Below are positions 2,806-50,954 of a stretch of DNA of 64,000 bases, in pieces. Each line of letters starts with the position of its first letter. Position 1 is the stretch's first letter. The notes below the pieces were generated by a model, which saw nothing but the letters and a program-made list of their open reading frames with translations, was not told where the DNA came from and did not search any database. This DNA is from Candidatus Nomurabacteria bacterium (GTDB lineage: Bacteria; Patescibacteriota; Minisyncoccia; Phycocordibacterales; UBA9973): assembly GCA_963832025.1 (NCBI GenBank), contig CAWHSF010000003.1, positions 294,606 through 358,605 of the forward strand, written 5' to 3'. A program made the translations under genes and the position numbers.

Positions 2806-3075
2806 ATGAGCTCAATCATCAAAAACCCAAGAGTTACCGAAAAGGCTTCATTTGCCGCCGAACAAAATGTTTACACTTTTGATATTTCGCAATCTGCAAA
2901 CAAAAGAGAAATCAAAAAAGCTGTCTTTACTCTTTATAAAGTGCATCCAGTAAAAGTAAATGTTATGACTATTCCAAGAAAGAAAACAATGTCCCAGGGA
3001 AAGAAGGGCATGCGTGGTGGAGGAAGAAAAGCTTTTGTATATTTAAAAAAGGGAGATAAAATAGAATTTATATAA
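2806..3075 (+). CDS. rplW: 50S ribosomal protein L23 (upstream ATG at 2782 lies inside palindromic repeat, so 2806 preferred)
   Basis: SSIIKNPRVTEKASFAAEQNVYTFDISQSANKREIKKAVFTLYKV L23 signature. Confidence 0.88.
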   Translation: MSSIIKNPRVTEKASFAAEQNVYTFDISQSANKREIKKAVFTLYKVHPVKVNVMTIPRKKTMSQGKKGMRGGGRKAFVYLKKGDKIEFI

Positions 3076-3914
3076 TGAAAACATACAAACCGACAAGCAA
3101 ATCAAGAAGGCAAATGACCAATGTGAGCTACAGGGGAGTTTTGAGCAATACCACACCCACCAAATCCCTGACCCATGGTTTTAAAAGAAACGTCGGTCGC
3201 AACAGCCAAGGACGTATCACCATGCGCCACAAGGGAGCCGGACACAAGCGCTTGTATCGAGACGTCGATTTTATTTACAATAAAAAAAACATTCCTGCAA
3301 AAATAGTTTCTGTAGAATACGACCCAAATCGTTCCGCATTTATCGGTCTGGCAGTTTACAAAGACGGAGAAAAAAGATACGTCGTATTGCCGAAATCAGT
3401 CAAACCAGGCGATTCTTTTGTCGTTTCCGAAAAAGCCGAACTAAAACCGGGCAACAGACTCCCTTTGCAATTTATTCCGGTCGGAACTTTTGTTTACAAT
3501 GTTGAAATCAAACCGATGGGTGGCGCAAAGATCGGACGCTCTGCAGGAATTTTCGCCCAAGTTGTCGCAAACGCCGACGGATATACAAATATTAAAATGC
3601 CTTCTACGGAAATTCGCAAAATAAACGAAAAGTGCTGGGCTTGCGTCGGAACTGTTTCCAACGAGGAACATCACTTGGAGAATTATGGCAAGGCAGGACG
3701 CAGTCGCTGGAAAGGAATTCGTCCGACAGTTCGCGGAACAGCTATGAACCCAGTAGACCATCCATACGGCGGAGGTGAAGGACGCCAAGGGCGCGGAACC
3801 AAAAGACCAAAGACTATGTGGGGTAAAGTTACCGGCGGACGTAAAACCCGCGGACCAAAGAAATACTCGAACGTCTTTATTGTTTCTCGCCGAAAAACAG
3901 GAAAGAATAAATAG
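3075..3914 (+). CDS. rplB: 50S ribosomal protein L2
   Basis: GRNSQGRITMRHKGAGHKRLYR...GTAMNPVDHPYGGGEGRQ L2 signature. Confidence 0.95.
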   Translation: MKTYKPTSKSRRQMTNVSYRGVLSNTTPTKSLTHGFKRNVGRNSQGRITMRHKGAGHKRLYRDVDFIYNKKNIPAKIVSVEYDPNRSAFIGLAVYKDGEKRYVVLPKSVKPGDSFVVSEKAELKPGNRLPLQFIPVGTFVYNVEIKPMGGAKIGRSAGIFAQVVANADGYTNIKMPSTEIRKINEKCWACVGTVSNEEHHLENYGKAGRSRWKGIRPTVRGTAMNPVDHPYGGGEGRQGRGTKRPKTMWGKVTGGRKTRGPKKYSNVFIVSRRKTGKNK

Positions 3915-3955
3915 TTCGACGAACTCACTACAAGTAAAAAATAATAATACTTAAA

Positions 3956-4012
3956 ATTGGGACGTCGGACACCTGCTTTAGCAGATGTCCGACGTCTGGA
4001 GGTTTATGCACT
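3956..4012. repeat. palindromic repeat family A, copy A2 (island left border)
   Basis: GACGTCGGACACCTGCTTTAGCAGATGTCCGACGTCTGGAGGTTTATGCAC. Confidence 0.8.
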
Positions 4013-4098
4013 TGTGTAATTTTGCATAAATGTTATAAATGCATTCATATAGTTCTATTCATTCTGGCTTCATAATCCACTCAGAGGAGTGTTACACC

Positions 4099-4290
4099 TT
4101 GAAAGAAAGTGCCACAGTACTTCGCAACAACAACCAAAAGGCGGCCGTTGCGGCCAAGGTGTTTAAGGGGGGCGTTCAAAAACCCCAAAGACAAGATGTT
4201 GCTGCTGACATTCGTCGGCAGTGGGGCAAACCGAGTCACAGCAAAAGTCGCAACTGGCGTTGGGGAGTGGCGCTGGCTGGCATTGCATAA
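4099..4290 (+). CDS. hypothetical small basic protein (~63 aa, TTG start after GAGGAG RBS); first cassette of S10-operon island
   Basis: RBS gaggag 8 nt upstream of TTG; preceded by TTGCAT-17-nt-TATAAA promoter-like unit; followed by hairpins 4296-4360. Confidence 0.25.
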   Translation: MKESATVLRNNNQKAAVAAKVFKGGVQKPQRQDVAADIRRQWGKPSHSKSRNWRWGVALAGIA

Positions 4291-4451
4291 ATAAAGACAG
4301 CCGGAGCTGTCTAAAGAAAGGAGGGAAGGGCGTCGGGATTAACTCGGCGCCCTCTTTACATTTACTTGCATTGTCATAAATAAATGTTATAAATAAAAAC
4401 GAATTCGTAATTAGTGAGCTACGGATAGTAGCTCGCTTTGGGAGAGAAGAA

Positions 4452-4649
4452 ATGGCCAACAGAGGTTCAGCAGTTTTACCGCATCGTAAGCAAGTGAAAA
4501 CCACCATGACAACCTTGCCCCGGCAAACACAGGAACCAGATGTTGTGGAAGAGATCATCGGTCGAGTTTTTCACGGCGGACACAAGCCACAACTTTATCC
4601 ACCCAATCCACGACAACAGCAAGCAGCCGAAGAATCTGCAGAAGAGTAG
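4452..4649 (+). CDS. hypothetical 65-aa protein (second island cassette)
   Basis: ATG preceded by GGGAGAG RBS, own promoter-like TTGCAT..TATAAAT at ~4368-4398, strong terminator 4663-4715. Confidence 0.35.
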   Translation: MANRGSAVLPHRKQVKTTMTTLPRQTQEPDVVEEIIGRVFHGGHKPQLYPPNPRQQQAAEESAEE

Positions 4650-4662
4650 ATCGAATTTCAAC

Positions 4663-4715
4663 GGGCGGGGAGTCGATGTTTCGACACCCCGCCCGCATTT
4701 GCGTTTACTCGATTT
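4663..4715 (+). terminator. intrinsic terminator after 65-aa ORF
   Basis: GGGCGGGGagtcgatgtttcgacaCCCCGCCC + T-rich tail. Confidence 0.6.
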
Positions 4716-4728
4716 TAATATTTTATTT

Positions 4729-4780
4729 CCAGACGTTGGACATCTGCTAAAGCAGGTGTCCAACGTCAGTCCAACGTCTC
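4729..4780. repeat. palindromic repeat family A, copy A3
   Basis: CCAGACGTTGGACATCTGCTAAAGCAGGTGTCCAACGTCagtCCAACGTCTC. Confidence 0.8.
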
Positions 4781-4929
4781 TTCACTTTTGTATTCTTGTG
4801 TTATATTTTTTGTATGGTATAAATATAAGTAGAACTAGTTCCTGCCGCCTAGCAGGGAGGCGGTACAACCTCAAAGCAAAAAAAACAAAGTGGATGCGTA
4901 AGCACACGTAAGCCATTGAGGGTCAGGTA

Positions 4930-5109
4930 ATGCAGAAAGAAGTAAACAAAAAAGCTGATTTGTCTACGACGCCTGTCGTCAAGGTTTCCAGTAGCATCGA
5001 ACCGGTTGGAGCAGCAGAAGCAGCAGGGACATACTGCATCGTGTTCGCTCCGCCGGAAAACCGGAAACCGCGGAACTTGATCGTGTACGACAATCGAGGC
5101 CACTACTAA
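4930..5109 (+). CDS. hypothetical 59-aa peptide MQKEVNKKADLSTTPVVKVSSSIEPVGAAEAAGTYCIVFAPPENRKPRNLIVYDNRGHY (below ORF-track cutoff)
   Basis: GAGGG RBS 8 nt upstream of ATG; upstream promoter-like TGgTATAAAT ~4803-4815 and 5'UTR hairpin; intrinsic terminator 5120-5176 immediately downstream. Confidence 0.45.
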   Translation: MQKEVNKKADLSTTPVVKVSSSIEPVGAAEAAGTYCIVFAPPENRKPRNLIVYDNRGHY

Positions 5110-5119
5110 AGTGGCCACA

Positions 5120-5176
5120 GGGGTTCATCGGCAAGCCAGCTGATGAACCCCACCGTTATTTTTACCCGATTTTTTA
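5120..5176 (+). terminator. intrinsic terminator after 59-aa peptide gene
   Basis: GGGGTTCATCggcaagccagctGATGAACCCC + TTATTTTTaccCGATTTTTT. Confidence 0.65.
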
Positions 5177-5195
5177 TAATTTTAAATTGCGAAAC

Positions 5196-5223
5196 TTGCT
5201 TTTATTTTAAAGTATGTTATACT
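5196..5223 (+). promoter_or_regulatory. sigma70-like promoter TTGCTT-16-TATACT driving candidate sRNA
   Basis: -35 5196-5201, -10 5218-5223. Confidence 0.4.
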
Positions 5224-5229
5224 TTATGG

Positions 5230-5420
5230 TAGATAGCTCCTCCGTGCTTTTTGTGGAGGCCTGTCTCCTGGCAATTCGTGAGTGGCTCCTCCACTCCTCA
5301 GGAGTTGAGCGCTTTGGCAACACTCTGCGGATGCTAGGTTGTAACATTGCTCCATTTTTCTATTCTCCTTGGGTCTGAATTCGGGTTTTGCCTCCCGTAA
5401 TATCAGACCCTATTTTTTTT
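5230..5420 (+). ncRNA. candidate ~190-nt structured sRNA of unknown family inside S10-operon island
   Basis: No ORF; own promoter; multiple nested hairpins (CCTCC/GGAGG, GAGTGG-ctcct-CCACTC, CCTG..CAGG); ends in GGGTCTGA...TCAGACCC stem plus T8 terminator 5371-5420. Confidence 0.4.
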
Positions 5421-5433
5421 ACCTAATTTTTAC

Positions 5434-5511
5434 TTGACCCGGTAGTAGAACTTTGCGATATGTAAAATTTGCATCAAAGATGCGTCGCAAAGTCTCACTA
5501 CTGGGTTGACT
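5434..5511. repeat. repeat family C copy C1 (long hairpin TTGACCCGGTAGTAG...CTACTGGGTTGAC; 3' end = -35 box)
   Basis: ttgacccggtagtagaactttgcgatatgtaaaatttgcatcaaagatgcgtcgcaaagtctcactactgggttgact. Confidence 0.8.
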
Positions 5512-5533
5512 TTTCAATACTTTGTGCTATGAT
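5506..5533 (+). promoter_or_regulatory. promoter TTGACT-16-TATGAT; -35 box contributed by 3' end of repeat C1
   Basis: -35 5506-5511, -10 5528-5533, followed by GGAG RBS and ATG 5556. Confidence 0.5.
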
Positions 5534-5555
5534 ATTAGAGAAGGAGATTTGCACC

Positions 5556-5792
5556 ATGTCGACCCAAGCAACAAAGGAGCGGGTTGGCCCGTTCCTCTTA
5601 ATCGGTTCCCTGTTTGCGGTGCCGATAGGTCTAGCGTTCTTTTACGAGGGTTTCAAAATCCAGGGAGACACATTACTGTCCCCGTCAAAGCTGACATGCT
5701 TTGTAGCTGGCGGGCTAATGGCTCTCTTCGGCATCATCTTTTGCTGGAGACACAACAACGACGGGAGGTTGGACAATGAAAGGTGGCGCTAG
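5556..5792 (+). CDS. small 2-TM membrane protein (78 aa), paralog of following ORFs
   Basis: GGAG RBS; two hydrophobic helices; internal similarity CFVAGGLMALFGIIFCW ~ FWVPGSLLALVGGIYLLY in next ORF. Confidence 0.5.
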   Translation: MSTQATKERVGPFLLIGSLFAVPIGLAFFYEGFKIQGDTLLSPSKLTCFVAGGLMALFGIIFCWRHNNDGRLDNERWR

Positions 5793-5976
5793 GAGGGGTA
5801 CTAGTTTCAACGTGGGTGCTGCAGTTGCGGCGGTGGCGCTCGCGATGGTAGTTTTCATCCACGACGATGCCGCCAAAAGCGCCCCTGACTTTATCGTCAG
5901 ATTTTGGGTGCCTGGTAGCCTCCTAGCTCTTGTGGGAGGAATCTACCTGCTCTACCGCCTCATCGTTCACAAGTGA
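5776..5976 (+). CDS. small 2-TM membrane protein (66 aa), overlaps previous ORF, paralogous
   Basis: RBS-like aggagg; hydrophobic; terminator 5990-6036 downstream. Confidence 0.45.
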   Translation: MKGGARRGTSFNVGAAVAAVALAMVVFIHDDAAKSAPDFIVRFWVPGSLLALVGGIYLLYRLIVHK

Positions 5977-5989
5977 TCGTTTTCACAGA

Positions 5990-6036
5990 CCGGTACCTGC
6001 GCAAAGACGCGGGGCCGGTTTTCGCTTTTTATTTAA
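5990..6036 (+). terminator. intrinsic terminator (repeat D copy 1)
   Basis: accggtacctgcgcaaagacgcggggccggttttcgctttttattt. Confidence 0.55.
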
Positions 6037-6039
6037 TTT

Positions 6040-6067
6040 GACTTTCTTGGATTTTATGCTATGATCT
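6040..6067 (+). promoter_or_regulatory. promoter TTGACT-16-TATGAT (near-copy of 5506 promoter incl. gaggagat RBS)
   Basis: -35 6040-6045, -10 6062-6067. Confidence 0.5.
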
Positions 6068-6083
6068 TCTTGAGGAGATCTTT

Positions 6084-6551
6084 ATGACAACAACAAGGTT
6101 CGGAGGTTCTCTCTGCATCGGTAGAGAGGAACTTGTAATAGCTGCGGTGTTTGTTACCATGGGCTTGGCCTGCCGTGTATCGACAAAAAGCAGTCGTGAA
6201 GCTGCCACAATGGTAATTGTGGTGGGGGTAGTCGCATTGTTAGCCTTACTATGGCAGGGGGTGAGAAAGGCCATTTCCTCCATTCTTCTCCCAACGTGGC
6301 GTGTGGTACCCAGGTTCGCAATCGCTTCGTGGAAGTTTGCGAGGAAGGGTCCGCGATACTGGATTCAGATTGCGGCGGTTGGGCTAATCTTCATCGGGGC
6401 TTTTGTCCTTGTGAGGTTGGATTTCAGCAAAGGAACGTCACTGGCGACGCTCCTTTCTCAAGTGTTAGCGAGCTTCTCTATACTTATTGGAGCGGGTTCG
6501 TACGTTTATTGTATAGGAGTGTTCAAGTTTCCAAACAGGTCCCAAGAGTAA
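6084..6551 (+). CDS. 4-TM membrane protein (155 aa), looks like tandem fusion of the 2-TM unit
   Basis: gaggagatctttATG RBS; 4 hydrophobic helices; terminator 6570-6617 is a copy of the 5990-6036 terminator. Confidence 0.55.
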   Translation: MTTTRFGGSLCIGREELVIAAVFVTMGLACRVSTKSSREAATMVIVVGVVALLALLWQGVRKAISSILLPTWRVVPRFAIASWKFARKGPRYWIQIAAVGLIFIGAFVLVRLDFSKGTSLATLLSQVLASFSILIGAGSYVYCIGVFKFPNRSQE

Positions 6552-6569
6552 ATCGTTTCGTTTCAATTC

Positions 6570-6617
6570 GACCGGCACCCGCGCAAAGACGTGGGGCCGG
6601 TCTTCGCTTTTTATTTT
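6570..6617 (+). terminator. intrinsic terminator (repeat D copy 2)
   Basis: accggcacccgcgcaaagacgtggggccggtcttcgctttttatttt, ~90% identical to 5990-6036. Confidence 0.55.
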
Positions 6618-6736
6618 GAATATGCTATGTTTCTCAGTAGGATAGTTCTTTTGGAGAGCGGTCTCCTGACAGGAACTATCTCGTGTGATAACGGGCTCTA
6701 AGCGTTTAAGCGCGTCCGTTACCACACATTCCGCAA

Positions 6737-6780
6737 CCGGGAGCCAGCTGCTTTTGGCAGGCTCCCGGTCTTTTTATTTT
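6737..6780 (+). terminator. intrinsic terminator closing the island
   Basis: ccgggagccagctgcttttggcaggctcccgg + T-run. Confidence 0.6.
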
Positions 6781-6839
6781 ACGTGAAAAAATGGTTTTTT
6801 TATTTCAGCTTTTCGGAATAAGGGCAATATAAAATCTAG

Positions 6840-6868
6840 TTGACAATTTTTCCTTATTTGCTACTATG
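6840..6868 (+). promoter_or_regulatory. internal promoter TTGACA-17-TACTAT re-initiating the r-protein operon at rpsS
   Basis: -35 6840-6845, -10 6863-6868, 28 nt upstream of rpsS ATG. Confidence 0.5.
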
Positions 6869-6896
6869 AAACCAAGCTCGTAGCGAGCTTTTTATT

Positions 6897-7247
6897 ATGA
6901 CTCGAAGTATCAAAAAAGGATTAAATGTCGACGAAAAACTTCTCTCAAAGATTGTGGGCAAAAACCCGCTCGAGACACCAATGGTAAAAACTTGGAAAAG
7001 AGCCTGCGTCATTTCTCCGGAGATGCTGGGTTTTACTTTTGGTGTGCATAATGGCAAAACCCATGTGGAAGTTTTGGTGACCGAAGATATGGTCGGGCAC
7101 AGACTCGGAGAATTTTCCCCAACCAAGAAATTTATTAAACACGGAGGAAAGATGCAGAAAGAGCTTGAACAGAAGAAAAAAGAAGCGGAGATTACTGCTG
7201 CCAAAGGTGCGACAGCGGCTGCCGAAGATGCTAAGGGTAAAAAGTAG
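6897..7247 (+). CDS. rpsS: 30S ribosomal protein S19 with ~25-aa Lys/Glu/Ala-rich C-terminal extension
   Basis: RSIKKGLNVDEKLL...HNGKTHVEVLVTEDMVGHRLGEFSPTKKF S19 signature. Confidence 0.93.
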   Translation: MTRSIKKGLNVDEKLLSKIVGKNPLETPMVKTWKRACVISPEMLGFTFGVHNGKTHVEVLVTEDMVGHRLGEFSPTKKFIKHGGKMQKELEQKKKEAEITAAKGATAAAEDAKGKK

Positions 7248-9924: not shown

Positions 9925-9965
9925 CAGACGTTGGATATCTGCTAAAGCAGGTGTCCAACGTCTCC
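9925..9965. repeat. palindromic repeat family A, copy A4 (rplN-rplX spacer)
   Basis: CAGACGTTGGATATCTGCTAAAGCAGGTGTCCAACGTCTCC. Confidence 0.8.
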
Positions 9966-10806: not shown

Positions 10807-10887
10807 GGTTTGACCCGGGTAGTGAATTTTGGCGAAGCGCAAAGCGCAATAATAAATTATCGCCAAAATCTACTACCGGGTTTGACT
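10806..10887. repeat. repeat family C copy C2 (rplE-rpsN spacer)
   Basis: gggtttgacccgggtagtgaattttggcgaagcgcaaagcgcaat...atcgccaaaatctactaccgggtttgact. Confidence 0.8.
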
Positions 10888-28156: not shown

Positions 28157-28173
28157 CTCCGCTACAATATTTG

Positions 28174-28563
28174 GGGATGCAAGGCATAGACAGTTGGCCT
28201 ATTTGCATTGATGCATACCGAGTATGAACATAATCTCGTAAAAATTTGTTCAACAGCTAATTGCAAAATCAGCTTTTACAGCAATGCTTTCGCCTTACTT
28301 CGGTAATTCGTTAGCTCTTGCTCCAGCTTTCGCGTAAGCCAAGGTTGGTGTCTCTCGTATAGACTTCCGATATATACGTAGAGGCATAATATTATCGGGA
28401 TAGGGAAGAAGACCGCTCTGACTTTTTTCCAAAACAAAAGAGCTCGATTAAAAAATATTTGGCTCGTTTAAGAATTTTTTAATTTAAAACAAAAAGCGAG
28501 CTACGTATGTAGACTTCTCTGCTATAACCTTCTGCACTGGGATTCAATTTCCCACATCTCCAC
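28174..28563 (+). ncRNA. ssrA: tmRNA (transfer-messenger RNA), one-piece
   Basis: Adjacent to smpB; 5' GGGGAUG pairs with 3' CAUCUCC+A (G3:U wobble = Ala identity); T-arm UGGGA-UUCAAUU-UCCCA; PK1 region GAUGCAUACCGAG...CUCGUAAAAA resembles E. coli GGUGCAUGCCGAG...CUCGUAAAAA; candidate tag ORF GCA(28263)...SLALAPAFA-UAA(28337); -10 TACAAT at 28164. Confidence 0.75.
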
Positions 28564-28609
28564 AATTTTTTTATTTTACTACCATTGTTTTTGATGGTAT
28601 TATTTTAAT

Positions 28610-39192: not shown

Positions 39193-39263
39193 CCTCCAGA
39201 CGTTGGATTGACGTTGGACACCCGCCAAAGGCGGATGTCCAACGTCTGGAGGTTTATCCACAA
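39193..39263. repeat. palindromic repeat family A, extended copy A6
   Basis: CCTCCAGACGTTGGAttgacgTTGGACACCCGCCaaaGGCGGATGTCCAACGTCTGGAGGTTTATCCAC. Confidence 0.8.
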
Positions 39264-49701: not shown

Positions 49702-50954
49702 TTTCCTAATGCATTATGGTAAACTTCCTCTAGTTTTTTTACACTCTCGTGTATATCATATTTTTGAACCATCTTGAAGCTAACCTCACCCATCCTCTCT
49801 CTCAATTCTTTGTCTTGAATTAATTTCAAAGTTTGCTCGGCTAGGTCTTTAGGATCCAAGGTTTTAAACAAAAATCCGTTGCCATTCACAAAATAACGGG
49901 AAGCGCTCATTTTTGTATCGGAAATAATAATCGGTTTTCCACAAGCCATCGCTTCAAGCACCACCATACCTTCCAGTTCCGCGAGCGACGGCAAAATAAA
50001 AATATCGCAGGCATTAAAAGCCAAGATTTTATCTTCTTCACTGACCAATCCTAAAAAGGTGATATGTTTTCGCATTTTTAGATTGTCCACTAATTTTTCT
50101 AATTTATTTCGCAAGATTCCACCGCCCGCAATCATTAGATACACATTAGGATTTACTTTGAGTATCTCTGGTATTGCTTTGATGAGTGTATCCACGGATT
50201 TTTCCGGGAACAGACGCCCGACGAAAAGCAATTTTATTTTATCTTTCGGTATTTCAAATCTTTCGTAAAAATTTCCAATTGGAAATTTCTGAAAATGTTT
50301 CAAATTTATTCCATTGCTGATGACAATCGATGGCTGGTCACGCTTGTTTAATTTATGTAGCAGATTTTTTGCCATTTCGGAGGGATAGATTATTATTTCT
50401 GCTTTACTGTAAACCCACATCAGATATTTGTTCCATAAGCTAAATAAAATGGGCTGAATAATATGGGGGGTGTCGGCAAATAAATTTTCCGGTTGCGAGT
50501 GCGAATGCGCCACGATTTTTATATGAAGTGCTCGCGCTGCTTTGATGGCGACAACCGCTCCCGACATTGGCAGAATAATATGCACGATGTTTATTTTTTC
50601 TTCCAGAAAAACTTTTTTTAATTCATTCACTGTCGGAAAGGCTAAATGCCAGCCGTTTGATTTAGGAATAGGAATACTGCGATAATGATAAAGCCTGATG
50701 CCATCGTAATAATCGTTGTTCGCGTGTTCCTTAGAGGTTGCTCCGACAAAAATGACATGATGTCCTTGTTCTTTTAATAATTTGGAAAATCGCAAAATAG
50801 ACACAAGCACTCCGGCTTTGTCTCCGCCAATCGGGTCGCAAATCATCGCGATATTCAATTTCCCGGTAGTAGATTTTTGCAATGCAAGTTTACTTGCGCG
50901 CTCTGCGCTTTGCGAAAACTCACTACCGGGTTTTCCTCTTTTTTCTTCAGGCAT
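49698..50954 (-). CDS. GT4-family glycosyltransferase
   Basis: EGMVVLEAMACGKPIIISD (EX7E motif), two Rossmann halves. Confidence 0.85.
   Translation of the reverse strand: MPEEKRGKPGSEFSQSAERASKLALQKSTTGKLNIAMICDPIGGDKAGVLVSILRFSKLLKEQGHHVIFVGATSKEHANNDYYDGIRLYHYRSIPIPKSNGWHLAFPTVNELKKVFLEEKINIVHIILPMSGAVVAIKAARALHIKIVAHSHSQPENLFADTPHIIQPILFSLWNKYLMWVYSKAEIIIYPSEMAKNLLHKLNKRDQPSIVISNGINLKHFQKFPIGNFYERFEIPKDKIKLLFVGRLFPEKSVDTLIKAIPEILKVNPNVYLMIAGGGILRNKLEKLVDNLKMRKHITFLGLVSEEDKILAFNACDIFILPSLAELEGMVVLEAMACGKPIIISDTKMSASRYFVNGNGFLFKTLDPKDLAEQTLKLIQDKELRERMGEVSFKMVQKYDIHESVKKLEEVYHNALGK

Follow-up and report, generated by a model that had tools for sequence, protein, structure and literature searches.

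A candidate small regulatory RNA gene in the fast-evolving rplB-rpsS islet of a Candidatus Nomurabacteria-type genome

The DNA analysed here, a stretch of 64,000 nucleotides that we call the window, is from a genome of the Candidatus Nomurabacteria type (Patescibacteria). At its rplB-rpsS junction lies an islet of tiny transcription units, which evolves very fast and differs in gene content between strains. An earlier note on this DNA had described a promoter, a hairpin-rich stretch and an intrinsic terminator within the islet, between positions 5196 and 5420, and all of these elements were found there. On the + strand this segment looks like a real, separately transcribed non-coding RNA gene of ~190 nt (Table 1). 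All terminators of the islet function on the + strand only. The tmRNA of this genome was located by the Rfam scan at 28173-28565, away from the RNA locus.

Table 1. Predicted features of the RNA locus and of the adjacent downstream region (positions in the window; L002 is a related strain)
Feature	Positions	Strand	Remarks
-35 element TTGCTT	5196..5201	+	Read from sequence; TTGTTT aligned in L002
Extended -10 TGtTATACT (hexamer TATACT, 5218-5223)	5215..5223	+	16-nt spacer from -35
Predicted transcript, ~190 nt	5230..5420	+	Predicted start 5229-5231, 6-8 nt past -10; 3' end in T run
P1, 5' hairpin (base AGAUAG/CUGUCU, top CCUC/GAGG)	5231..5266	+	10 consensus pairs, all kept in L002
P2, central hairpin domain (closing helix 5267-5272/5333-5338, inner helix 5277-5280/5326-5329, apical hairpin 5285-5310)	5267..5338	+	
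Apical loop ACUCCUCA with anti-SD-like CUCCU	5293..5300	+	L002 loop UCUCCUUU; CUCCU conserved
Single-stranded C/U-rich linker with conserved block ACAUUGYUCCAUUU; candidate seed region	5339..5370	+	
Terminator hairpin, outer stem GGGUCUGA/UCAGACCC plus inner AUU/AAU and CGGG/CCCG	5371..5410	+	-18.1 kcal/mol
T8 tract	5413..5420	+	Read from sequence; L002 counterpart TTTCTTTTT
MITE-like palindromic insertion, 70 nt, with TTGAC duplication	5437..5506		Context, not part of the RNA; absent from L002
Downstream unit: promoter TTGACT-16-TATGAT (5506-5533), SD AAGGAGA, 78-aa 2-TM protein M1 (5556-5792)	5506..5792	+	

The RNA appears to be transcribed from a sigma-70-type promoter with an extended -10 element. 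The predicted promoter TTGCTT-16-TATACT, which had been proposed before, is present at 5196-5223 and is kept as TTGTTT-16-TGtTATATT in L002, a related strain (rplB DNA 87% identical) that carries the same RNA unit at the same place. Because its -35 element matches TTGACA at just three of six positions, the promoter was not listed by the consensus scan. The promoter regions of the two strains are 80% identical and contain an invariant AAAGTATGTTATA block, and the spacer upstream is unalignable (58%). The -10 element is made an extended one by the TG at 5215-5216, which the earlier note did not mention. Three other island units have the same promoter architecture, with the ACTTGC[AT]T motif common to them.

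Folding of the + strand from 5229 to 5420, a check that the earlier note had suggested, gave a minimum free energy (MFE) of -68 kcal/mol against -48.7 +/- 4.1 kcal/mol for shuffled sequences (z = -4.72), and none of 200 shuffles was as good. The L002 homolog had a z of -4.73. When the terminator was left out, the core gave a z of -3.27 on the + strand vs -1.73 on the - strand, with energies of -46.2 vs -35.0 kcal/mol in the window and -37.6 vs -30.3 kcal/mol in L002, so that the + strand is favored by 7-11 kcal/mol in both variants. The P2 helices recurred in the separate MFE folds of the two sequences. In both variants, neither the MFE structure nor the centroid pairs the linker (~30 nt), whose energy was 0 kcal/mol when it was folded alone. 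No tandem or direct repeats were found within 5196-5420.

At the 3' end, GGGTCTGA (5371-5378) pairs with TCAGACCC (5403-5410) to form the outer part of a terminator stem of 8+3+4 bp, and a conserved UUUGCCUCCC spans the apical loop and the CCC of the inner helix. The 8-bp stem and T8 tract reported before are thus present (5371-5420) and kept in L002, with further inner pairs. This hairpin was missed by a simple terminator scan because its apical loop is above the loop limit of the scan. There is no T run after the hairpin on the - strand, and therefore the terminator is predicted to work only on the + strand.

The homolog in L002 (L002:2966-3149) is 72.6% identical to the RNA of the window, and includes runs of up to 19 nt without any difference. 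By comparison, the identity between the two strains is 61% for the U3 unit, 57% for the M1 coding sequence, and 87-88% for rplB and rpsS. The consensus structure has 39 pairs; 100% of its cells are paired in the two sequences and none is broken, while registers slid by 1-3 columns are just 33-47% paired. Ten pairs vary between these two independent sequences, four of them with compensatory changes and six with one-sided changes of the G-U type, and all ten keep pairing. They include four of the six pairs of the P2 closing helix (two compensatory, two G-U-type), three of the four pairs of the P2 inner helix, each altered on one side, and two compensatory pairs in the terminator stem (G-C to A-U and A-U to G-C). 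In P1, one U-G pair is U-A in L002, and its equivalent on the - strand would be a C-A mismatch. In a shuffle control of covariation, 26 of 500 runs reached the observed value, which is the floor for four events, and two independent variants give this control almost no power (the copy in L031 is the same variant as that of L002). Judged from the alignment, the unit and its helices seem to have been kept in L002 while the flanking small genes diverged almost to randomness. An independent, structured transcription unit without a conserved ORF, as had been predicted, is supported by the predicted promoter and terminator, the fold, and the homolog.

The RNA appears, so far, to be restricted to one narrow lineage of uncultivated Nomurabacteria. 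The islets of relatives were walked via the L2 and S19 proteins, and several contigs break at the islet. This walk gave one full homolog (L002), and the RNA was absent from the islets of L023, L034-L037, L040, and L041. The pattern TGGCTCCTCCN{6,10}GGAGTTGAGC had six matches in GTDB genomes and none in IMG/VR. The six belong to unrelated taxa and were put down to chance, so that no genuine copy came from the GTDB representatives. Eight matches were found in JGI metagenome contigs, of which only L031 is real (a partial copy of the L002 variant). A blastn search against phages and plasmids returned nothing. At the same position in another relative (L032:2247-2401) lies a possible divergent homolog, which has a promoter like that of the RNA, a hairpin with GATAGCT, GTCATAAGTGAGGGG, and an apical loop containing CCUCC. 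It was left out of the count, since it was missed by both nhmmer and the covariance model R1 and is cut off by the end of the contig. A match of R1 in L015 (E 0.2) is antisense inside an EF-Tu coding region and was taken as chance. A literature search on sRNAs of the candidate phyla radiation (CPR) found nothing relevant.

Such a narrow distribution, in which the JGI metagenome scan added one partial copy and the GTDB representatives added none, could also be expected of a remnant with little or no function, that is, a decayed duplicate of a small gene that kept its promoter, structured leader, and terminator after loss of the ORF and would give transcription noise if anything. A similar promoter (ACTTGC[AT]T-N16/17-TG.TATA..) is found at units U1-U3 and at the L032 unit, together with a similar transcript start (GTAG(A)TAGCT), and this fits a recent duplication with possibly little function. 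Moreover, the islet evolves very fast with strain-variable gene content, and L040, L041, and more distant relatives lack the RNA. However, a decaying copy would hardly be better conserved than the small genes on its flanks (72.6% vs 57-61%), with invariant runs as long as 19 nt, nor would it keep pairing at all ten varying pairs, even in a closing helix altered at four of six positions. The promoter and terminator are intact in both strains, and an extreme enrichment of CUCC is retained. We therefore consider a remnant unlikely, although it deserves to be kept in mind.

This small RNA is the segment of the window that is richest in CUCC. The 191-nt RNA has nine copies of CTCC compared with a window mean of 0.66, and the next-best segment has 4-5. 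The segment had been described as nested hairpins built on CCTCC/GGAGG motifs; it is indeed rich in hairpins, but the motif basis holds only in part, as CTCC exceeds GGAG by 9:2 (5:1 in L002). Because of this surplus, most copies cannot be sequestered internally. The GGCTCCTCCNCTCCT block around the apical loop has three CTCC in both variants. The copies at 5265, 5350, and 5366 are not conserved in L002, the CUCC motif of P1 is base-paired, and UCUCCUU at 5364-5370 of the linker is found only in the window.

These motifs suggest that the RNA might act by base-pairing, and we infer that the most likely mechanism is pairing with Shine-Dalgarno (SD) regions. Through the CUCC/CUCCU motifs of its apical loop, linker, and terminator loop, the RNA would pair with ribosome-binding sites of the GGAG type and so block the initiation of translation of target mRNAs, as is thought to happen with Gram-positive C-rich-loop sRNAs and with the CCUCCUCCC 'cuckoo' sRNAs. 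The neighboring small membrane-protein genes are plausible candidate targets because of their strong SDs (AAGGAGA, GGGAGG, GAGGAGA). CUCC-GGAG pairing is inherently unspecific. RNAduplex scans against the mRNAs of the islet gave uninformative, long-bulged duplexes, so targets were searched by exact complements instead, and this search, which covered L002 as well as the 64-kb window, returned only chance-level 10-12-mers. Binding of CsrA (a sponge) was also considered and was rejected, the GGA motifs not being conserved in L002 by inspection. Taken together, a stand-alone structured non-coding RNA gene on the + strand of 5196-5420 that would act by base-pairing at SDs has, in our estimate, about an even chance of being right.

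A more specific version would make the RNA a lineage-specific anti-SD riboregulator that was born inside the ribosomal-protein operon of a CPR bacterium and that, by offering several CUCC/CUCCU sites, selectively silences or sponges the minority of SD-led mRNAs, above all those of the adjacent hypervariable membrane-protein genes. Many genes in the window seem to have no SD in a crude scan. We regard this version as speculative and rather improbable. If it were true, expression of a fast-evolving islet that possibly serves host interaction would be tied to the synthesis of ribosomes.

The gene immediately downstream encodes M1. A homology search with its 78-aa protein among 5.8 billion proteins found only itself, and Pfam and PHROGs gave nothing above threshold for the proteins of the islet. 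The earlier note had offered the RNA as a cis-regulatory leader or as an antitoxin RNA for these membrane proteins, and neither idea fared well. As a leader or attenuator, the RNA would form the 5' portion of the M1 mRNA, with its terminator regulated by a riboswitch or a protein. The RNA and M1 are indeed adjacent and co-oriented in both strains, and the terminator is close to the -35 of M1 (19 nt upstream in L002, 85 nt in the window). But a strong promoter of M1 lies between the terminator and the SD, and this promoter with its 5'UTR is 86% identical in L002 and thus more conserved than the RNA. Furthermore, the MITE-like element (-33.7 kcal/mol when folded, with termini common to two other copies in the window) sits between the RNA terminator and the M1 promoter in the window, so that an insertion of 70 nt was tolerated there. 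The same unit of membrane gene and promoter also exists in two sister lineages, L040 and L041, that lack the RNA, and the RNA is therefore dispensable for the neighboring genes in those lineages. No conserved antiterminator alternative was seen by eye, and the sole cis-regulatory match in Rfam was PreQ1 on the - strand of the L002 promoter region, with 11.5 bits (E 7.9) against a gathering threshold of 39. A leader is thus improbable.

An antitoxin RNA of a type I-like or type III-like system would neutralise the small hydrophobic 2-TM proteins encoded next to it. These small membrane proteins measure 66-78 aa, are encoded immediately downstream behind strong SDs, and stay linked to the RNA in both strains. 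The M1 SD AAGGAGA has a complement in UCUCCUU, which the RNA of the window has in its linker and that of L002 in its apical loop. On the other hand, the RNA is not antisense to the mRNAs of M1, M2, or M3 and has no extended complementarity to them (18-20 nt or more). The longest perfect complement to the RNA in the window is 12 nt, at chance level, and is in none of these three mRNAs; matches to the downstream mRNAs or to the rest of the window are chance-level 10-12-mers. There are no tandem repeats in the style of type III, Pfam and PHROGs assign the neighbors to no toxin family, and the M1 proteins (2-TM, 65-78 aa) are unlike the typical single-helix type I toxins. M1-like genes also persist without the RNA in L040 and L041. 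We hold out little prospect for an antitoxin.

The product of the locus might instead be a protein. The earlier note had called the stretch free of ORFs, which is literally incorrect as there are ORFs of 54 aa on the + strand and 43-46 aa on the - strand; it is correct in that neither frame, start, nor length of any of them is conserved in L002 (two sequences compared). The + strand frame is shifted by a 4-nt indel between the strains. If the - strand protein MEQC... (5355..5224, 43 aa) were the product, the signals of the + strand would be incidental or would belong to an antisense regulator. Its ATG is preceded at 9 nt by AAGGAG in the window, and the MEQC N-terminus, an AQL.R.GGATHE segment, and the length of the variable middle (11 codons) are common to the two strains. 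However, all 11 middle codons differ, and in L002 the ORF stops after 27 codons and has no SD. The - strand also has no evident promoter or terminator, the T run following the hairpin on the + strand only, and it folds 7-11 kcal/mol worse, with A-C mismatches where the + strand has G-U pairs. The MEQC... peptide has no Pfam match. A product from this strand is very unlikely.

Rfam was searched at gathering thresholds with the whole window and at E<=10 with the islet and with the RNA alone, in both strains. The Rfam comparison, which the earlier note had proposed, assigned neither a family nor a known riboswitch to the RNA, and no weak match was common to both strains. The locus matched neither RNase P, SRP, or tmRNA nor any other family, and the RNA can keep its earlier designation as an orphan without these signatures. 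Weak similarities (13-18 bits vs gathering thresholds of 50-58.8) were to ar14, sX13, and Betaproteobacteria toxic sRNA, labelled by Rfam as alphaproteobacterial, Xanthomonadaceae, and betaproteobacterial 'toxic' sRNAs, respectively, which we take to be of anti-SD or C-rich types. A match to IS128 at 6724-6924 (-), with 31.9 bits vs a gathering threshold of 80, is outside the RNA locus. A 6S-like RNA sequestering RNA polymerase, another earlier suggestion, shares just its size (~190 nt) and independent transcription with this RNA and can hardly be right, since the predicted structure effectively refutes it: both folds and the consensus have a 5' hairpin, a central hairpin domain, a single-stranded linker, and a terminator hairpin as the 3' end, with no rod-like fold, 5'/3' closing stem, or central bubble, no RF00013-type match was found at E<=10, and the RNA is confined to one species-level lineage where a housekeeping RNA such as 6S would be expected clade-wide.

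We regard the ~190-nt RNA as a solid, though rather ordinary, candidate for a regulatory RNA with a putative function. For now, it adds another lineage-restricted orphan to the known sRNAs, which helps annotation and is unsurprising. Regulatory RNAs of the CPR (Patescibacteria) are essentially uncharacterised because the organisms are uncultivated, and a well-delimited candidate, with a promoter, a terminator, a conserved fold, and a clear strand, is a concrete object to search for in metatranscriptomes of peat and bog. If it does act on SDs, a mechanism known from Firmicutes and Proteobacteria would extend to CPR bacteria, and it could help explain how an unusual and hypervariable islet of tiny genes at the rplB-rpsS junction is controlled.

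Several known systems can be compared with this candidate RNA. It is like 6S RNA (RF00013) in being a stand-alone gene of ~190 nt. Type I antitoxin sRNAs include IstR-1 of tisB and SR4 of bsrG. Like them, the RNA has its small gene beside genes of small hydrophobic proteins, but unlike them it is co-oriented and non-overlapping with its neighbors and has no extended complementarity. Among the C-rich-loop sRNAs of Gram-positive bacteria, the RNAIII hairpins and RsaE of S. aureus and RoxS of B. subtilis pair with the G-rich SD of mRNAs. The RNA shares with these an exposed C/U-rich loop or linker, a 3' terminator hairpin, and the absence of extended complementarity, whereas its motif is CUCC(U) rather than UCCC/CCCC and it has no known sequence or Rfam similarity to them. 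Members of the cuckoo RNA family (ar14 / RSs0680 / SmelC397) have two to four adjacent hairpins, each with CCUCCUCCC in the loop (PMC4615179). Membership of this family was rejected, as the RNA has no CCUCCUCCC and its match to ar14 (RF02344) is 15.6 bits, in L002 only, vs a threshold of 58.8. It differs from the cuckoo RNAs in having no such nonamer in its loops, with CUCCU in one apical loop and the other copies in stem strands and the linker, and from the cuckoo and anti-SD families in belonging to a different phylum, the Patescibacteria. Nevertheless, the RNA is possibly a functional analogue of the cuckoo family, though not a member. Like the cuckoo and anti-SD sRNAs (Betaproteobacteria toxic sRNA, RF02278, and Xanthomonas sX13, RF02232), it is, by prediction, an independently transcribed RNA of 100-200 nt with adjacent hairpins and an intrinsic terminator, it is strongly enriched in anti-SD-like C/U motifs, and its stems appear, from the two variants, to change in a compensatory manner while the C/U motif stays.

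The genome is patescibacterial (CPR), of the Candidatus Nomurabacteria type: at 90% identity, its L2 protein clusters with proteins from MAGs that, where named, are called Nomurabacteria, Parcubacteria or 'Patescibacteria group'. S19 proteins identical to its own were found in peat and bog metagenomes. The candidate RNA lies in the S10 ribosomal-protein gene string, inside an islet of about 3 kb between rplB (3075-3914) and rpsS (6897-7247). Small units follow one another there in the same orientation, and each has a promoter and a + strand-specific terminator of its own.

Features of the rplB-rpsS islet and related elements (prefixes L denote contigs of relatives)
Feature	Position	Strand	Remark
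Short hydrophilic-ORF units U1-U3	~4019-4353, 4365-4700, 4795-5151	+	
Candidate RNA unit	5196-5420	+	promoter to terminator
Three small membrane-protein units	5556-5792, 5776-5976, 6084-6551	+	
Islet junction	window 3915-6896; L002:1324-3845; L040:2698-3532; L041:4798-5647; L023:6841-7208; L015:6850-7868		
REP-like palindromes	window 3961-3996, 4732-4767, 9927-9962, 39210-39246; L002:115-165		half-sites 956, 2777, 12267
rpsS promoter/hairpin region in relatives	L023:7130-7208; L036:7110-7198; L034:7218-7277; L040:3463-3532; L041:5579-5647		

The promoter that the earlier note had proposed for the RNA is present, with a -35 TTGCTT (5196-5201), a 16-nt spacer and a -10 TATACT (5218-5223), the latter extended by a TG at 5215-5216. 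The consensus promoter scan skipped it, as only 3 of the 6 positions of its -35 match. The proposed terminator was found as well: GGGTCTGA/TCAGACCC (5371-5378/5403-5410) and inner pairs (-18.1 kcal/mol) are followed by T8 at 5413-5420, and the simple terminator scan missed it because its loop is longer than the rule allows.

An exact S19 protein match led to L002, an ENA contig of 8 kb that represents a related strain. Its S19 is identical to that of the window, its L2 protein is 96% and its rplB DNA 87% identical, and an islet of 2.5 kb occupies the same junction. The RNA was located at L002:2932-3149 by blastn, by nhmmer and by a covariance model. The transcript is 72.6% and the promoter 80% identical, compared with 57-61% for the flanking islet genes, and the spacer that precedes the promoter cannot be aligned. 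The blocks AGATAGCTCCTC, ATTCGTGAGTGGCTCCTCC, GGAGTTGAGCG, ACATTG.TCCATTT and TTTGCCTCCC are invariant.

The folding energy of the 192 nt from 5229 is -68 kcal/mol, with dinucleotide shuffles at -48.7 +/- 4.1 (z -4.72). Separate MFE folds of the two variants gave the same architecture, and their RNAalifold consensus has 39 pairs, each formed in both sequences. Compensatory double changes occur in four pairs, two in the terminator and two in the closing helix of the central hairpin domain, whose 3' strand falls in the most variable segment of the RNA; six further pairs carry one-sided changes via G-U. When the 3' partners were slid by 1-3 columns as a control, pairing fell to 33-47%. A serious caveat is that no covariation statistic has power at two independent sequences: in the shuffle control 26 of 500 reached the observed value, the attainable minimum. 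The core folds better on the + than on the - strand (-46.2 vs -35.0 kcal/mol in the window, -37.6 vs -30.3 in L002); G-U pairs of the + strand become A-C mismatches on the - strand, and the islet hairpins have T runs 3' of them on the + strand only. The linker of about 30 nt between central domain and terminator is unstructured in both variants and holds the conserved ACAUUGYUCCAUUU.

The region had been described as without ORFs. This is not literally so, since ORFs of 43-54 aa exist on both strands, but none is conserved in L002. A 4-nt indel shifts the + strand frame between the variants. The - strand ORF (MEQC...) is 43 aa long in the window but 27 aa in L002, 11 of 11 middle codons differ, and its upstream AAGGAG occurs in the window only.

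Scanning metagenome contigs added only a truncated copy of the L002 variant (L031), and scans of GTDB genomes, IMG/VR, phages and plasmids gave no real match. Among relatives with L2 90-94% identical, L040 and L041 have about 60 nt at the place of the RNA and only small basic-protein and small membrane-protein units, and L023 and L034-L037 lack it in spacers of 370-490 nt. In L032 (L2 94% identical), positions 2247-2401, at the same place and after the small basic-protein unit, have a similar promoter (ACTTGCAT-17-TATACT), a 5' GAUAGC hairpin (GATAGCT) and a long central hairpin whose apical loop carries CCUCC (z -3.6). This stretch is cut by the contig end and was unrecognised by nhmmer and the covariance model; it is possibly a divergent relative, and we treat it as a hint only. 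The RNA is thus a young gene of narrow distribution.

We think it probable that the candidate is a real, transcribed, structured ncRNA gene. Its promoter (ACTTGC[AT]T-N16/17-TG.TATA..) and transcript start GTAG(A)TAGCT are similar to those of adjacent small-gene units, both in the window and in L002 and L032, which suggests an origin within the islet through duplication of the promoter and leader of such a unit. The same resemblance keeps alive the view that it is a decaying remnant of an islet unit, which is unlikely, since the helices are preserved, the signals are intact in both strains and conservation exceeds that of the neighbours. A leader of the 2-TM gene is disfavoured, as a separate promoter, TTGACT-16-TATGAT (5506-5533), serves that gene and is 86% conserved, thus above the RNA itself; in the window only, terminator and promoter are held apart by an inserted 70-nt palindrome and its TTGAC duplication, and L040 and L041 retain promoter and membrane gene without the RNA. 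An antitoxin RNA of type I or III is likewise disfavoured: internal repeats are lacking, and complementarity to the downstream mRNAs or the rest of the 64-kb window does not exceed chance-level 12-mers. The 6S-like option fails on layout (5' hairpin, central hairpin, linker, terminator), without closing stem or central bubble.

Neither at gathering thresholds nor at E<=10 did Rfam assign the RNA to a family, in agreement with the claim that the RNA is not RNase P, SRP or tmRNA; the tmRNA of this genome is at 28173-28565. The 'orphan sRNA' reading is supported up to what sequence can show, and the RNA would be a lineage-specific bacterial sRNA, a known kind. It is useful chiefly because it gives metatranscriptomics of an uncultivated phylum a well-defined locus to validate.

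The rplB-rpsS junction is usually only a few bases wide. In this Nomurabacteria lineage it is a hypervariable islet of 0.37 to 3 kb depending on the relative, with shifting sets of tiny promoter-to-terminator units for small basic ORFs and small 2-TM proteins, and it is a break point of many assemblies. L015 and L018 have a DUF559 endonuclease gene there. U1-U3 (4019-5160) have the promoter type of the candidate RNA, structured leaders of about 100 nt, hydrophilic ORFs of 59-65 aa and strong terminators. Since these ORFs show no recognisable conservation in L002, L040 and L041, non-coding RNAs could be among these units as well. The terminators of the second and third membrane-protein units lie in a 47-nt direct repeat (5988-6034 and 6570-6616, 91% identical; GACCGG.ACC.GCGCAAAGACG.GGGGCCGG), and L040 has a related terminator after its membrane gene; the repeated terminators suggest that these units multiplied via tandem duplication.

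The 70-nt palindrome (5437-5506, perfect stem, -33.7 kcal/mol) is flanked by the TTGAC duplication and absent in the L002 allele. Its termini CCCGGTAGTAGA...TCACTACCGGG recur in two more copies with different centres (~10810-10881 on the - strand and 50861-50931), and Logan contig L003 starts exactly at it. It looks like a MITE-like mobile element whose insertion regenerated the -35 of the downstream promoter. REP-like palindromes of about 36 nt (GACGTYGGACAYCTGCT..AGCAGRTGTCCRACGTC) occupy intergenic spots of the ribosomal-protein region (11 arm matches vs 0.16 expected), and Logan contig L001 breaks off midway through one. The stretch 6840-6896 contains a separate promoter for rpsS, TTGACA-16-TACTAT, and within about 10 nt after it a short hairpin and U run right before the start codon (AAGCTCGTAGCGAGCTT-TTTATT-ATG). 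Relatives keep this hairpin with different sequence (GGCTCAAAYGAGAGCC, AAGCTCGTTMRGAGCTT), and it may serve the S19-L22-S3 unit as an attenuator or an autoregulatory leader.

Base-pairing sRNAs classically combine a structured 5' body with a single-stranded C/U-rich region and a terminator, and this RNA has that layout; its CUCC(U) motif is complementary to the core of the Shine-Dalgarno sequence. No other 191-nt stretch on either strand of the window is as rich in CTCC as the RNA, which has nine copies (mean 0.66, next-best 4-5). The ratio of CTCC to GGAG is 9:2 in the window and 5:1 in L002, too high for most copies to be sequestered internally. Five are conserved, among them a CUCCU that the central hairpin presents in its 8-nt apical loop (ACUCCUCA in the window, UCUCCUUU in L002) and a copy in the apical region of the terminator (UUUGCCUCCC). 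The islet membrane-protein genes have strong Shine-Dalgarno sequences (AAGGAGA, GGGAGG, GAGGAGA); many other window genes apparently have none in a crude, unreliable scan. The most likely mechanism would be pairing with Shine-Dalgarno regions through the CUCC(U) motifs, which we propose tentatively and with some doubt. UCUCCUU, the exact complement of the AAGGAGA of the first membrane-protein gene, occurs once per variant, in the linker (window) or the apical loop (L002), which fits this model and carries little information.

In function, its nearest analogues would be sRNAs with anti-Shine-Dalgarno motifs: cuckoo/ar14 (PMC4615179), Betaproteobacteria toxic sRNA, sX13 and the Firmicutes C-rich-loop sRNAs. 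Weak similarity in Rfam was limited to the first three of these, with scores of 13-18 bits that lie far below threshold, and the RNA does not qualify as a member of these families.
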